Of a stretch of 64,000 bases of DNA, positions 58,468 through 64,000 are shown piece after piece. A program made the translations under genes and the position numbers. This DNA is from Escherichia coli (GTDB lineage Bacteria; Pseudomonadota; Gammaproteobacteria; Enterobacterales; Enterobacteriaceae), in the NCBI RefSeq assembly GCF_013315695.1, contig NZ_CP054353.1; one strand, 5' to 3'. The stretch's first letter is position 1; each line of letters starts with the position of its first letter. Under the pieces are notes generated by a model. That model was not told the DNA's origin, searched no databases, and worked only from the letters and a program-made list of their open reading frames with translations.

Positions 58468-61400
58468 ATGGGTAAAGGAAGCAGTAAGGGGCATACCCCG
58501 CGCGAAGCGAAGGACAACCTGAAGTCCACGCAGTTGCTGAGTGTGATCGATGCCATCAGCGAAGGGCCGGTTGAAGGTCCGGTGGATGGATTAAAAAGCG
58601 TGCTGCTGAACAGTACGCCGGTGCTGGACACTGAGGGGAATACCAACATCTCCGGTGTCACGGTGGTGTTCCGTGCCGGTGAGCAGGAGCAGACACCGCC
58701 GGAGGGGTTTGAATCCTCCGGCTCCGAGACGGTGCTGGGTACGGAAGTGAAATATGACACGCCGATCACCCGCACCATTACGTCTGCAAACATCGACCGT
58801 CTGCGCTTTACCTTCGGTGTACAGGCACTGGTGGAAACCACCTCAAAGGGTGACAGGAATCCGTCGGAAGTCCGTCTGCTGGTTCAGATACAACGTAACG
58901 GTGGCTGGGTGACGGAAAAAGACATCACCATTAAGGGCAAAACCACCTCGCAGTATCTGGCCTCGGTGGTGGTGGGTAACCTGCCGCCGCGCCCGTTTAA
59001 TATCCGGATGCGCAGGATGACGCCGGACAGCACCACAGACCAGCTGCAGAACAAAACGCTCTGGTCGTCATACACCGAAATCATCGATGTGAAACAGTGC
59101 TACCCGAACACGGCACTGGTCGGCGTGCAGGTGGACTCGGAGCAGTTCGGCAGCCAGCAGGTGAGCCGTAATTATCATCTTCGCGGGCGCATTCTGCAGG
59201 TGCCGTCGAACTATAACCCGCAGACGCGGCAATACAGCGGTATCTGGGACGGAACGTTTAAGCCGGCATACAGCAACAACCCGGCCTGGTGTCTGTGGGA
59301 TATGCTGACCCACCCGCGCTACGGCATGGGGAAACGTCTTGGTGCGGCGGATGTGGATAAATGGGCGCTGTATGTCATCGGCCAGTACTGCGACCAGTCA
59401 GTGCCGGACGGTTTTGGCGGCACGGAGCCGCGCATCACCTGTAATGCCTGGCTGACCACGCAGCGTAAGGCGTGGGATGTGCTCAGTGATTTCTGCTCGG
59501 CGATGCGCTGTATGCCGGTATGGAACGGGCAGACGCTGACGTTCGTGCAGGACCGACCATCAGATAAGGTGTGGACCTATAACCGCAGTAATGTGGTGAT
59601 GCCGGATGATGGCGCGCCGTTCCGCTACAGCTTCAGCGCCCTGAAGGACCGCCATAATGCCGTTGAGGTGAACTGGATTGACCCGAACAACGGCTGGGAG
59701 ACGGCGACAGAGCTTGTTGAAGATACGCAGGCCATTGTCCGTTACGGTCGTAATGTCACGAAGATGGATGCCTTTGGCTGTACCAGCCGGGGGCAGGCAC
59801 ACCGCGCCGGGCTGTGGCTGATTAAAACTGAACTGCTGGAGACGCAGACCGTGGATTTCAGCGTGGGTGCTGAAGGGCTTCGCCATGTACCGGGCGATGT
59901 CATTGAAATCTGCGATGATGACTATGCCGGTATCAGCACCGGTGGTCGCGTGCTGGCGGTGAACAGCCAGACCCGGACGCTGACGCTCGACCGTGAAATC
60001 ACGCTGCCATCCTCCGGTACCACGCTGATAAGCCTGGTTGACGGAAGTGGTAATCCGGTCAGCGTGGAGGTTCAGTCCGTCACCGACGGACTTAAGGTGA
60101 AAGTGAACCGGGTTCCTGACGGCGTTGCAGAATACAGTGTGTGGGGGCTGAAGTTGCCGACGTTGCGTCAGCGCCTGTTCCGCTGTGTGAGTATCCGTGA
60201 GAACGATGACGGCACGTATGCCATCACTGCCGTGCAGCATGTACCGGAAAAAGAAGCCATCGTGGATAACGGGGCGCACTTTGACGGCGACCAGAGCGGC
60301 ACGGTGAATGGTGTCACGCCGCCAGCGGTGCAGCACCTGACCGCCGAAGTCACCGCAGACAGCGGGGAATATCAGGTGCTGGCGCGCTGGGACACGCCGA
60401 AGGTGGTGAAGGGCGTGAGCTTCCTGCTCCGTCTGACCGTAACAGCGGATGACGGCAGTGAGCGGCTGGTCAGCACGGCCCGGACGACGGAAACCACATA
60501 CCGCTTCACGCAACTGGCGCTGGGGAACTACAGACTGACAGTCCGGGCGGTAAATGCGTGGGGGCAGCAGGGCGATCCGGCGTCGGTATCGTTCCGGATT
60601 GCCGCACCGGCAGCACCGTCGAGGATTGAGCTGACGCCGGGCTATTTTCAGATAACCGCCACGCCGCATCTTGCCGTTTATGACCCGACGGTACAGTTTG
60701 AGTTCTGGTTCTCGGAAAAGCGGATTACCGATATCAGGCAGGTTGAAACCACAGCCCGCTATCTTGGTACGGCGCTGTACTGGATAGCCGCCAGTATCAA
60801 TATCAAACCGGGCCATGATTATTACTTTTATATCCGCAGTGTGAACACCGTTGGCAAATCGGCATTCGTGGAGGCTGTCGGTCAGGCGAGCGATGATGCG
60901 GAAGGTTACCTGGATTTTTTCAAAGGCCAGATAACCGAATCCCATCTCGGCAAGGAGCTGCTGGAAAAAGTCGAGCTGACGGAGGATAACGCCAGCAGAC
61001 TGGAGGAGTTTTCGAAAGAGTGGCAGGACGCTAACGATAAGTGGAATGCCATGTGGGGCGTCAAAATTGAGCAGACCAAAGACGGCAAACATTATGTCGC
61101 GGGTATTGGCCTCAGCATGGAGGACACGGAAGAAGGCAAGCTGAGCCAGTTTCTGGTTGCCGCTAACCGTATCGCGTTTATTGACCCGGCAAACGGGAAT
61201 GAAACGCCGATGTTTGTGGCGCAGGGCAATCAGATATTTATGAACGACGTGTTCCTGAAGCGCCTGACGGCCCCGACCATTACCAGTGGTGGAAATCCAC
61301 CGGCATTTTCCCTGACATCAGACGGAAAGCTGACCGCTAAAAATGCGGATATCAGTGGCAGAGTGAATGCGAACGCCGGGACGCTCAACAATGTCACGGT

Positions 61401-61881
61401 AAATGAAAACTGTACGATTAAGGGCATGCTGGAGGCGACTCAGGTCAGAGGTGACTTCGTTAAAGCTGTATCCAAATCATTCCCGAAACAGGCTGGTACG
61501 TGGGGTAACACGGAAACACCAAACGGGACGGTTACAGTCACCATCAGCGATGATCATAACTTTGACCGTCAAATCATTATTCCGCCCATTATCTTTAACG
61601 GAATAGCGTATAGCGATCCGGGAAGTGGTAATAACCCGGGAGGTACAAGATACACGGGTTATGGTTTTGAAGTTCGCAAAAACGGTGTATTAATCGCATC
61701 CAGAGAAACTAAAGGGGCCATTCCCGGTAGCTACAGTGCGGTTATTGATATGCCGAGTGGCAGGGGAAGCGTCACTCTGGAGTTTAAGGTTTTCCATAAA
61801 GGCAATCAGTGGGCAGGTAATATCACCGACTGTACGGTGATTGTGACCAAAAAAGCCGCTTCCGGCATCAGTATTCGTTGA
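58468..61881 (+). CDS. J: central tail fibre/host specificity protein J
   Basis: 1137 aa; lambda J-like over most of its length, divergent C-terminal receptor-binding part. Confidence 0.93.
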
Positions 61882-61950
61882 AATTGTTATAACCCATATA
61901 AGGGCACCAGAAATGGTGCCTTTTTTATTGCAGAAAAGCGAGAGGTAATT

Positions 61951-62550
61951 ATGCGTAAACTTTATGCCGCCATTTTGTCCGCAGCCATTTGTCTGGCCGT
62001 ATCCGGTGCGCCTGCATGGGCATCTGAACATCAGTCCACGCTGAGCGCGGGGTATCTTCATGCCCGGACCAACGTTCCCGGCAGTGATGATCTGAACGGG
62101 ATTAACGTGAAATACCGTTATGAGTTTACGGATACGCTGGGGCTGGTGACGTCATTCAGCTATGCAGGAGACAAGAATCGCCAGCTGACCCGTTACAGCG
62201 ATACCAGCTGGCATGAAGATTCCGTGCGTAACCGCTGGTTCAGCGTGATGGCGGGGCCGTCTGTGCGCGTGAATGAATGGTTCAGCGCGTATGCGATGGC
62301 GGGTATGGCTTACAGCCGTGTTTCGACTTTTTCCGGGGATTACCTTCGCGTAACTGACAACAAGGGGAAAACGCACGATGTGCTGACCGGAAGTGATGAC
62401 GGTCGCCACAGCAACACGTCTCTGGCGTGGGGGGCTGGCGTGCAGTTTAACCCGACCGAATCCGTGGCCATTGATATTGCTTATGAAGGTTCTGGCAGTG
62501 GTGACTGGCGCACTGACGGTTTCATCGTGGGTGTCGGTTATAAATTCTGA
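61951..62550 (+). CDS. lom: Ail/Lom/OmpX-family outer-membrane protein (moron)
   Basis: 199 aa, signal peptide, C-terminal …YEGSGSGDWRTDGFIVGVGYKF. Confidence 0.85.
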   Translation: MRKLYAAILSAAICLAVSGAPAWASEHQSTLSAGYLHARTNVPGSDDLNGINVKYRYEFTDTLGLVTSFSYAGDKNRQLTRYSDTSWHEDSVRNRWFSVMAGPSVRVNEWFSAYAMAGMAYSRVSTFSGDYLRVTDNKGKTHDVLTGSDDGRHSNTSLAWGAGVQFNPTESVAIDIAYEGSGSGDWRTDGFIVGVGYKF

Positions 62551-62614
62551 TTAGCCAGGTAACACAGTGTTATGACAGCCCGCCGGTTCAGGTGGGCTTT
62601 TTTGTGGGGGGAAT

Positions 62615-64000
62615 ATGGCAGTAAAGATTTCAGGTGTACTGAAAGACGGCACAGGAAAACCGGTACAGAACTGCTCAATCCAGCTGAAAGCAAAACGTAA
62701 CAGCACCACGGTGGTAGTGAACACGCTGGCCTCAGAAAATCCGGATGAAGCCGGGCGTTACAGTATGGATGTTGAGTATGGCCAGTACAGCGTTATCCTG
62801 CTGGTTGAAGGTTTTTCGCCTTCACATGCCGGGACCATCACCGTGTATGAAGATTCTAAGCCGGGGACGCTGAATGATTTTCTCGGTGCCATGACGGAAG
62901 ATGATGTCATGCCGGAGGCATTGCGTCGTTTTGAGGAAATGGTGGAAGAAGCGGCACGCAACGCTGAAGCCGCCTCTCAGAGCGCAGCGGCGGCAAAGAA
63001 ATCCGAAACTGCAGCGGCATCATCGAAGAACGCGGCGAAAACCTCAGAAACGAATGCAGCTAATAGTGCACAGGCGGCAGCGACCTCAAAGACTGCATCG
63101 GCAAACTCCGCGACAGCAGCCAAAAAATCAGAAACCAACGCGAAAAATAGCGAGACAGCCGCAAAGACGAGCGAAACCAACGCAAAGTCCAGCCAGACGG
63201 CAGCGAAAACCAGCGAAACGAATGCCAAAGCCAGTGAAACTGCGGCAAAAAACAGCCAGGTTGCAGCAGCCCAAAGCGAGAGCGCGGCAGCCGGTTCTGC
63301 GACTTCAGCAGCTGGATCAGCAACTGCTGCGGCTAACAGCCAGAAAGCTGCGAAGACGAGTGAAACTAACGCAAAGTCCAGCCAGACGGCAGCGAAGACC
63401 AGCGAAACGAATGCCAAAGCCAGCGAAACTGCGGCGAAAAACAGTCAGGATGCAGCAGCCCAAAGCGAGAGTGCTGCAGCTGGTTCTGCAAGCGCGGCGG
63501 CTGCTTCTGCCACTGCATCAGCCAACAGTCAAAAAGCAGCAAAAACCAGTGAAACCAATGCAAAGACAAGCGAGACTGCAGCGGCGAACTCGGCGAAAGC
63601 ATCGGCAGCAAGCCAGACAGCAGCTAAAGCAAGTGAAGACGCAGCCAGAGAGTATGCAAGTCAGGCAGCAGAGCCGTATAAATATGTCTTACAGCCACTG
63701 CCTGATGTGTGGATACCGTTTAACGATTCACTGGATATGATTACGGGCTTTTCGCCGTCATATAAAAAAATTGTTATTGGTGATGATGAAATAACGATGC
63801 CTGGCGACAAGGTTGTTAAGTTTAAACGCGCATCAACTGCCACATATATCAATAAATCAGGCGTATTTAGTGTTGCTAAAATTGATGAGCCACGATTTGA
63901 AAAAGAAGGTTTATTGATTGAAGGACAGCGCACTAACTATTTTGTTAAATCCAATACTCCCGCTGAATGGACGAGTACCAGCAATATCGATAAAACTAAT
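62615..64000 (+). CDS. stf: side tail fibre protein, 5' portion (continues beyond window)
   Basis: Open frame from MAVKISGVLKDGTGKPVQNCSIQLKAKRN with no stop before the window end; repetitive (S/T)ETNAK(A/S/T) shaft repeats. Confidence 0.85.
   Translation, partial: MAVKISGVLKDGTGKPVQNCSIQLKAKRNSTTVVVNTLASENPDEAGRYSMDVEYGQYSVILLVEGFSPSHAGTITVYEDSKPGTLNDFLGAMTEDDVMPEALRRFEEMVEEAARNAEAASQSAAAAKKSETAAASSKNAAKTSETNAANSAQAAATSKTASANSATAAKKSETNAKNSETAAKTSETNAKSSQTAAKTSETNAKASETAAKNSQVAAAQSESAAAGSATSAAGSATAAANSQKAAKTSETNAKSSQTAAKTSETNAKASETAAKNSQDAAAQSESAAAGSASAAAASATASANSQKAAKTSETNAKTSETAAANSAKASAASQTAAKASEDAAREYASQAAEPYKYVLQPLPDVWIPFNDSLDMITGFSPSYKKIVIGDDEITMPGDKVVKFKRASTATYINKSGVFSVAKIDEPRFEKEGLLIEGQRTNYFVKSNTPAEWTSTSNIDKTN

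Follow-up and report, generated by a model that had tools for sequence, protein, structure and literature searches.

The lom gene in the window (the whole stretch of 64,000 nt of Escherichia coli DNA that was analysed) is very probably an intact gene of the type found in phage 434 and in E. coli prophages, which encodes an eight-stranded outer membrane barrel of the Ail/Lom family and has a mosaic junction inside it. It is this junction within the gene that confines the match with lambda lom to the tail. The allele itself is an ordinary, already annotated one of the phage 434 type. The features on which this reading rests are collected in Table 1.

Table 1. Features of lom and of its neighbours, numbered from the first nucleotide of the window.
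Feature	Coordinates	Strand	Description
J	58468..61881	+	1137 aa
3' end of J, receptor-binding domain, 434 type	61419..61881	+	codons ~985-1137 and stop; left part of the block differing from lambda
Hairpin and T-run between J and lom	61900..61923	+	terminator-like; 10-pair stem, then TTTATT
Ribosome-binding site GAGAGGT	61940..61946	+	4 nt 5' of the lom ATG; read from the sequence
lom ORF	61951..62550	+	ATG start, 199 aa; sole ORF at these coordinates
Putative Sec-type signal peptide, lom codons 1-24	61951..62022	+	MRKLYAAILSAAICLAVSGAPAWA; basic N-terminus, hydrophobic core, A-W-A before S25
Lom body, window/434 type	62023..62470	+	codons 25-173; β1-β6, start of β7, L1-L3 (predicted); 37% to lambda, saturated dS
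lom tail	62471..62550	+	codons 174-199 and stop; most of β7 (from residue 174), L4, β8 (predicted), C-terminal Y-K-F; ~90% nt identity to lambda
Hairpin and T-run between lom and stf	62577..62598	+	terminator-like; 8 pairs, 6 of them G-C, then TTTTTGTGGG
stf 5' part	62615..64000	+	translation starts MAVKISGVLKDGTGKPVQNC; runs off the window end

The genes J, lom and stf follow one another in this order on one strand, as they do in lambda and in phage 434, and no second copy of lom was found within the window. The Lom protein starts with MRK, continues through a hydrophobic core to AWA|SE and ends in GVGYKF, and from residue 27 onward it aligns with the N-terminus of mature OmpX. Judged by these signals, Lom would be exported by Sec, cleaved after A24 (before S25) and inserted into the outer membrane by BAM via its C-terminal G-x-x-Y-K-F signal. 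The Pfam family PF06316 (Ail_Lom) covered the protein from end to end (395.5 bits against a cut-off of 23, E = 5.8e-119; protein 1-199 on profile 1-199 of 199), and the scores of the window Lom against the NCBIfam models for Rck (PRK15240; 118 bits, equivalog cut-off 258) and OmpX (PRK09408; 96.5 bits, equivalog cut-off 176) lay below the respective cut-offs. The sequence E-values of OmpX and Ail for the window Lom were ~1e-18.

In an AF2 model (pLDDT 85.5), Lom is predicted to fold into a small barrel of eight antiparallel strands (residues 29-40, 47-58, 63-81, 86-106, 111-135, 141-166, 172-183 and 186-198), with a low-confidence helix at residues 2-17 ahead of the barrel. The best Foldseek matches of this model were Ail (3qra/3qrc) and OmpX (1qj9), with E-values of about 1e-14 to 3qra and 1qj9. 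Lom thus has its barrel fold in common with Ail of Yersinia, OmpX of E. coli and Rck/PagC of Salmonella, at ~30-37% identity; compared with OmpX, however, the β3-β4 and β5-β6 hairpins are much longer in Lom, and its being prophage-borne also sets the window Lom apart. A sequence-only reading of this DNA had assigned the gene to the Ail/Lom/OmpX type, and the full-length PF06316 match, the predicted barrel and the slot between J and stf, the same as in lambda, bear this assignment out.

Among the closest known relatives is the Lom of phage 434 (OL657226.1, CPT_434_22, annotated as 'Ail/PagC/OmpX porin'), which is identical to the window Lom at 195 of 199 residues (98%) and differs from it by four substitutions. 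Phage 434 also has the arrangement seen in the window, namely J, a terminator, a ribosome-binding site, a 600-bp gene, a second terminator and the side tail fibre; a difference lies in J, in which the N-terminal ~984 residues are lambda-like in the window. Sequences 95-99% identical to the window Lom were present in 137 phage records, and this allele is also that of further lambdoid phages, Stx-converting ones among them (Ayreon, WGPS2/4/6, CP-1639 and phi330). Quantification in complete E. coli genomes revealed DNA of the window-type Lom body in 4666 of 5426 genomes (median 2 copies, up to 13), whereas the lambda-type body was found in 100 of the 5426, almost all at an identity of at least 99%, and the top-listed records of the latter were laboratory or commercial strains. 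The seemingly divergent window allele is therefore the norm in E. coli, and the lambda type is a rare outlier. A description of the window Lom as a diverged lambda Lom was rejected on these grounds: it is the 434 allele and the commonest E. coli type, and it is lambda's type that is rare. Since lambda's own Lom is an atypical allele, lambda is a poor yardstick for 'divergence'.

The 3 kb around lom are 100% identical to NZ_OZ547117, the chromosome of an E. coli bloodstream isolate, in which RefSeq names the product of the ORF 'Ail/Lom family outer membrane beta-barrel protein' (WP_001571062.1). There, lom is part of a lambdoid prophage, with ompT and envY only a few kb away. In the identical genome, past the point that corresponds to the window end (L002; 13328-14525 and 16380-19001), we observed fragments of tail-fibre-assembly and DinI pseudogenes at the right end of the prophage. 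This right end adjoins ompT, envY and ybcH. In K-12, this neighbourhood is that of the right end of the DLP12 cryptic prophage.

Alignment with lambda Lom (J02459, 18965-19585) gave 46% identity (86 of 187 aligned residues; E = 3e-57), spread very unevenly along the chain: 50 of 135 residues were identical at 25-159 (37%), 8 of 14 at 160-173 and 25 of 26 at 174-199. Identity to lambda Lom was thus not uniform, and close identity along the whole protein was not seen, the window and lambda proteins belonging to two allele types (LomN1 and LomN4, respectively; see below). The C-terminal string that the sequence-only reading had quoted from lambda Lom, YEGSGSGDWRTDGFIVGVGYKF, corresponds to residues 178-199 and is the same in lambda. 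The near-identity at this end is real but spans ~26 residues rather than the ~40 that had been supposed, and the divergence of the N-terminal part, real as well, takes up ~87% of the protein and not two-thirds of it. Otherwise, lambda Lom occupies the same slot, belongs to the same Pfam family, has the same predicted eight-stranded fold and shares the last 25 residues; an L1 region shorter by 8 residues counts among the differences, and RefSeq uses the name 'lom: outer membrane beta-barrel protein Lom' for the lambda type but only 'Ail/Lom family' for the window type.

At the DNA level, identity to lambda was at least 90% up to ~61400, fell to 35-60% at ~61410-62470, returned to ~90-93% from 62471 to ~62930 and was low beyond ~62930. 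The maximum chi-square method placed the right breakpoint at 62471 (lom codon 174), with an identity of 0.51 to its left and 0.91 to its right, and the left breakpoint at 61419 (J codon ~985); in either case, 0 of 1000 permutations reached the value. J is ~98% identical to lambda J until ~residue 960 and then divergent, and its receptor-binding domain is 95.4% identical to the central tail fibre of phage 434 (94% over the last 170 aa). Synonymous divergence from lambda followed the same steps: dS was 0.12 in J codons 1-960, 3.3 (saturated) in J codons 985-1137, 1.5 (saturated) in lom codons 25-173, 0.57 in lom codons 174-199, a stretch with only ~17 synonymous sites, and 0.38 in stf codons 1-105. 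Likewise, pS was 0.40 in lom codons 174-199 and 0.65-0.77 upstream. Because synonymous sites are saturated, dN/dS between the two types is uninformative.

Beyond the lom stop codon, 63 of 67 nt in the lom-stf intergenic region are identical to lambda, the terminator downstream of lom and the start of stf are near-identical in the two, and the first ~105 codons of stf are lambda-like (90-93% identity to ~62930) in continuity with the 3' end of lom, so that high identity to lambda extends 380 nt past the stop codon and into stf. Since this identity crosses the stop codon and the terminator and enters stf, the C-terminus of Lom is the left edge of a conserved segment. We read the contrast between the N-terminal and C-terminal parts, as the alignments present it, as a recombination junction and not as a domain that was kept fixed while the rest diversified. 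Mosaicism of lambdoid phages is textbook knowledge. Relative to lambda, the prophage has a 434-type block at 61419-62470, made up of the J receptor-binding domain, the Lom body and the hairpin between the two, and the last 26 lom codons are part of a conserved segment that runs through the terminator to the 5' end of stf and is common to most lambdoid prophages.

Next, we compared lom loci from IMG/VR. Two scans yielded 157 loci, all chosen for having lom. In the analysis of 156 complete lom genes, window and lambda included, each locus contributed its Lom, the C-terminus of J and the N-terminus of Stf. The Lom bodies fell into types separated at 85% identity or less: LomN1 (window type; 100 loci), LomN2 (43 loci), LomN3 (8 loci) and LomN4 (lambda type; 5 loci). 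LomN1, LomN2 and LomN4 agree almost completely in their last 26 residues; the spacer behind the gene is also common to them, and so, in most loci, is the Stf N-terminus. LomN3 has its own tail, VDLAYEVAGHGDWRTDAFIVGIGYRF, and all 8 of its loci also have a separate Stf type, indicating that the lom tail follows the downstream module. On the other side of the gene, the 27 nt ahead of the lom ATG go with the Lom type, and it is inside the J-lom hairpin that the J type takes over; between the T-run and the ATG, nearly all intergenic variants of window-type Lom have one and the same sequence, regardless of the J type. The loci L030 and L101 share J ends that are 100% identical and yet differ in their Lom bodies, so that one junction lies in the intergenic hairpin between J and lom. 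Similarly, loci with the J type JC1 vary in their Lom: 36 have Lom type 2, five have Lom type 3 and one has Lom type 1, and Lom type 3 is found beside the lambda-like JC6 as well. From these comparisons, the Lom body, from the ribosome-binding site to codon 173, is an independently exchangeable cassette with at least four types. We rejected the idea that the J domain and Lom form one obligatory unit, as loci with identical J ends have different Lom bodies.

Several loci in this collection depart from the common arrangement. L005 retains no more than the last ~100 residues of a 434-type J, joined to upstream sequence that is unrelated. L071 has, ahead of lom, an ORF that bears no relation to J and is, by its appearance, presumably transposase-like. 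Lom is shorter in L138-L140, at 181-191 aa and with 56-57% identity to its lambda counterpart, and stands there beside JC1-like J ends.

Could the C-terminal identity be due to nothing more than purifying selection that acts on the BAM signal and on the final two strands, without recombination? Outer-membrane barrels in general need a C-terminal aromatic signal, the tail of Lom ends in G-V-G-Y-K-F where OmpX has G-V-G-Y-R-F, and the BAM signal and barrel closure would also account for part of the protein conservation in the tail. However, the ~90% nucleotide identity takes in synonymous sites and reaches 380 nt past the stop codon, OmpX shares just about the last 8 residues, and the LomN3 tail goes with a different stf type at every one of its loci. 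Constraint by itself does not enforce an identity of 25 of 26, given that OmpX departs from Lom at about half of the 26 tail positions. To the extent that sequence comparison can tell, identity in the flanking non-coding DNA already contradicts purifying selection acting alone, and we consider this explanation highly improbable.

We then considered where in the predicted barrel the differences from lambda fall. Exposed regions were set as residues 39-48, 73-96, 121-156 and 182-187 (L1-L4), limits that assume ~10 membrane residues beside each periplasmic turn. With these limits, identity to lambda Lom was 22% in L1-L3 and 100% in L4, compared to 63% for the barrel core of the whole protein and 55% for the core inside the divergent block. 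A loop-focused divergence appears to be real, then, and to lie on top of the mosaic step. Of the earlier view that divergence concerns exposed parts, it holds that L1-L3 are far more diverged than the core (22% vs 55%), but exposure is not limited to the N-terminus. Since exposed and membrane segments alternate along the chain in the AF2 model, the N-terminal part is not 'the exposed part', as the sequence-only reading had it: loops alternate with membrane strands along the whole predicted barrel, and the conserved tail holds L4.

Variation within the window type was quantified in 85 unique nucleotide alleles of window-type lom. The pN/pS ratio was 0.13 in the barrel core (pS 0.11), 0.35 in L1 (pS 0.34), 0.33 in L2 (pS 0.18) and 0.11 in L3 (pS 0.10), and a region average of pN/pS above 1 was found in none of the regions among these 85 alleles; positive selection at single sites may nonetheless occur beneath such averages. 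It is in L1 (residues 37-49) and L2 (73-81) that common amino-acid polymorphisms are concentrated. Since pS is raised together with pN in L1 and L2, and since a haplotype of multiple substitutions stands beside a single J type, this pattern suggests that the L1/L2 variation stems from imported segments rather than from repeated point substitution. The haplotype in question (LQPHTDMPGSDDLK plus ANAEDEQKTH, residues 36-49 and 72-81) was seen only beside JC3, at ~10-12 of the loci L003-L159; other L1 and L2 variants are common to several J types. We also observed that the window allele has Ser86 (62204-62206) where 83 of the 85 unique window-type alleles have Arg, S86 being present in 2 of the 85. 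Residue 86 lies at the exposed tip of the β3-β4 hairpin in the predicted fold.

These values speak against the diversifying selection that had been proposed for this gene: per region of the window-type allele, pN/pS ranged from 0.11 to 0.35, and where pN was raised (L1 and L2), raised pS accompanied it. In its fuller form, the proposal would be that positive selection drove the divergent N-terminal region of a lambda-like lom while structural constraint held the C-terminus. The low identity of L1-L3 to lambda relative to the core inside the divergent block (22% vs 55%) and the clustering of polymorphisms in L1 and L2, with pN/pS of 0.33-0.35 vs 0.13 in the core, are in its favour. Nevertheless, the step in identity is present also at the DNA level and at synonymous sites, runs into non-coding DNA and stf, and has a symmetrical counterpart inside J; pN/pS remains below 1 in every region, with pS itself raised in L1 (0.34) and L2 (0.18) relative to the core (0.11); about half of the 26 tail positions are different in OmpX; and the exposed loops are not restricted to the N-terminal part. 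We thus regard positive selection as an improbable source of the contrast between the two parts of the gene, a role that the pattern in the flanking DNA, as we interpret it, already refutes, and retain the recombination junction as its explanation.

Hairpins followed by T-runs lie on both sides of lom, and the phage 434 record has terminators annotated at the sites of both. The J-lom hairpin with its T-run is conserved across lambdoid loci and bounds the exchangeable Lom cassette on the left. Among 13 intergenic variants, this hairpin shows compensatory changes at three stem pairs, with 91% of cells paired vs 38-62% when the partners are slid. Stem variants across L003-L159 include GGCACC/GGTGCC, GGCGCC/GGCGCC and GGCGTC/GACGCC, and most variants, the window included, have a GAAA loop. 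The lom-stf intergenic region is near-identical in most loci. An Rfam scan of 61700-62800 returned two far-sub-threshold matches to eukaryotic families only, which we took as chance. The small RNA 24B_1, which lies 'downstream of lom' in phage phi24B (PMC4426718), was rejected as a candidate at the window lom: phi24B is of a different phage type with a 428-nt spacer, and the 64-nt spacer of the window is occupied by the terminator, so 24B_1 is not relevant here.

The stf product is named 'prophage tail fiber N-terminal domain-containing protein' in RefSeq. The centre of stf in the window (63112-63583) is a tandem array with units of 189, 42 and 21 bp, encoding Ala/Ser/Thr/Lys-rich repeats such as AAKTSETNAKSSQT. 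AT skew in this array is strong (up to 0.65), and an Arg/Gln-rich ORF of 279 aa at 62901-63740 is the stf repeat in another frame.

With regard to expression, a scan of 61500-62900 gave no match to a sigma-70 consensus promoter, and only ~27 nt separate the upstream hairpin from the lom ATG; a weak or non-consensus promoter may still be present. Of the features of a moron, a terminator downstream is present, as a hairpin with a T-run that is conserved across loci. Expression of lom is most safely attributed to the late operon, via antiterminated read-through. Lambda Lom is reported to be expressed from the repressed prophage (PMC12366544; PMC12502783), and PMC12366544 cites a ribosome-profiling study (Liu et al. 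2013) for expression of lambda Lom in the lysogen. By analogy with lambda Lom, the window lom may be expressed as part of the late operon and, weakly, in the lysogen.

As to its function, a role of the Ail/Rck type in adhesion or serum resistance is the classical view of Lom. Such a role is the alternative to what we consider most likely by analogy with lambda, namely that Lom binds or masks an outer membrane phage receptor and so cuts adsorption of kin phages. The long β3-β4 and β5-β6 hairpins, which would stand above the membrane, are the likely ligand-binding part. Expression of lambda Lom protects strongly against lambda-vir and not against T7 (PMC12366544), and the PDB entry 9wso holds maltoporin (LamB) together with lambda Lom, J not being part of the entry. 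A literature search retrieved no paper on 9wso or on Lom-LamB, and a search on 9wso, 9wca and 9wcb, the entries found with the window and L001 queries, likewise found no paper on them. The entry 9wcb contains 'A8 gpJ 713' and OmpC, and its J domain is 99% identical to JC4. To transfer the LamB-binding and anti-lambda function to the window allele is to argue by analogy, the exposed regions of the two proteins being ~22% identical.

The J proteins of the 434 type use OmpC as receptor, and OmpC was shown genetically to be the receptor of phi330 (PMC12502783). The J domains JC2 (434 type) and JC4 (phi330/A8 gpJ type) are 48% identical to each other, and both occur with window-type Lom. It is possible, although we hold this only tentatively and lean against it, that lom is half of a receptor-matched cassette, in which each Lom type binds or masks the receptor of its own phage (LamB for lambda, OmpC for 434 and phi330) and moves with the J domain. 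In agreement with such matching, the block that diverges from lambda consists of exactly the J receptor-binding domain and the Lom body; 9wso joins LamB with lambda Lom, and lambda Lom blocks lambda-vir specifically (PMC12366544); JC2 and JC4, both OmpC-related (PMC12502783; PDB 9wcb), both pair with window-type Lom; and Lom type and J type are strongly associated across loci. However, adjacency alone yields an association, and the sample is clonally redundant; reassortment is also seen, as in the combination of JC1 with Lom types 1, 2 and 3, of Lom type 3 with JC1 and JC6, and of 100% identical J ends with different Lom bodies in L030 and L101. Slightly more doubtful still is the specific case of the window, in which Lom of the window/434 type would pair with OmpC and mask it on infected or lysogenic cells, thereby limiting wasteful adsorption of kin phages and making 61419-62470 a two-part 'bind it / hide it' unit.

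Taken by itself, the lom of the window matters little, as it is a routinely annotated prophage gene present in most E. coli genomes. What the contrast between its two parts marks is a precise mosaic junction, and this contrast shows the Lom body to be an exchangeable cassette. If receptor matching were true, a prophage gene that is very widespread and has long been enigmatic would gain a function, and such matching would also help in predicting, from sequence, superinfection exclusion and the receptors that phages use.
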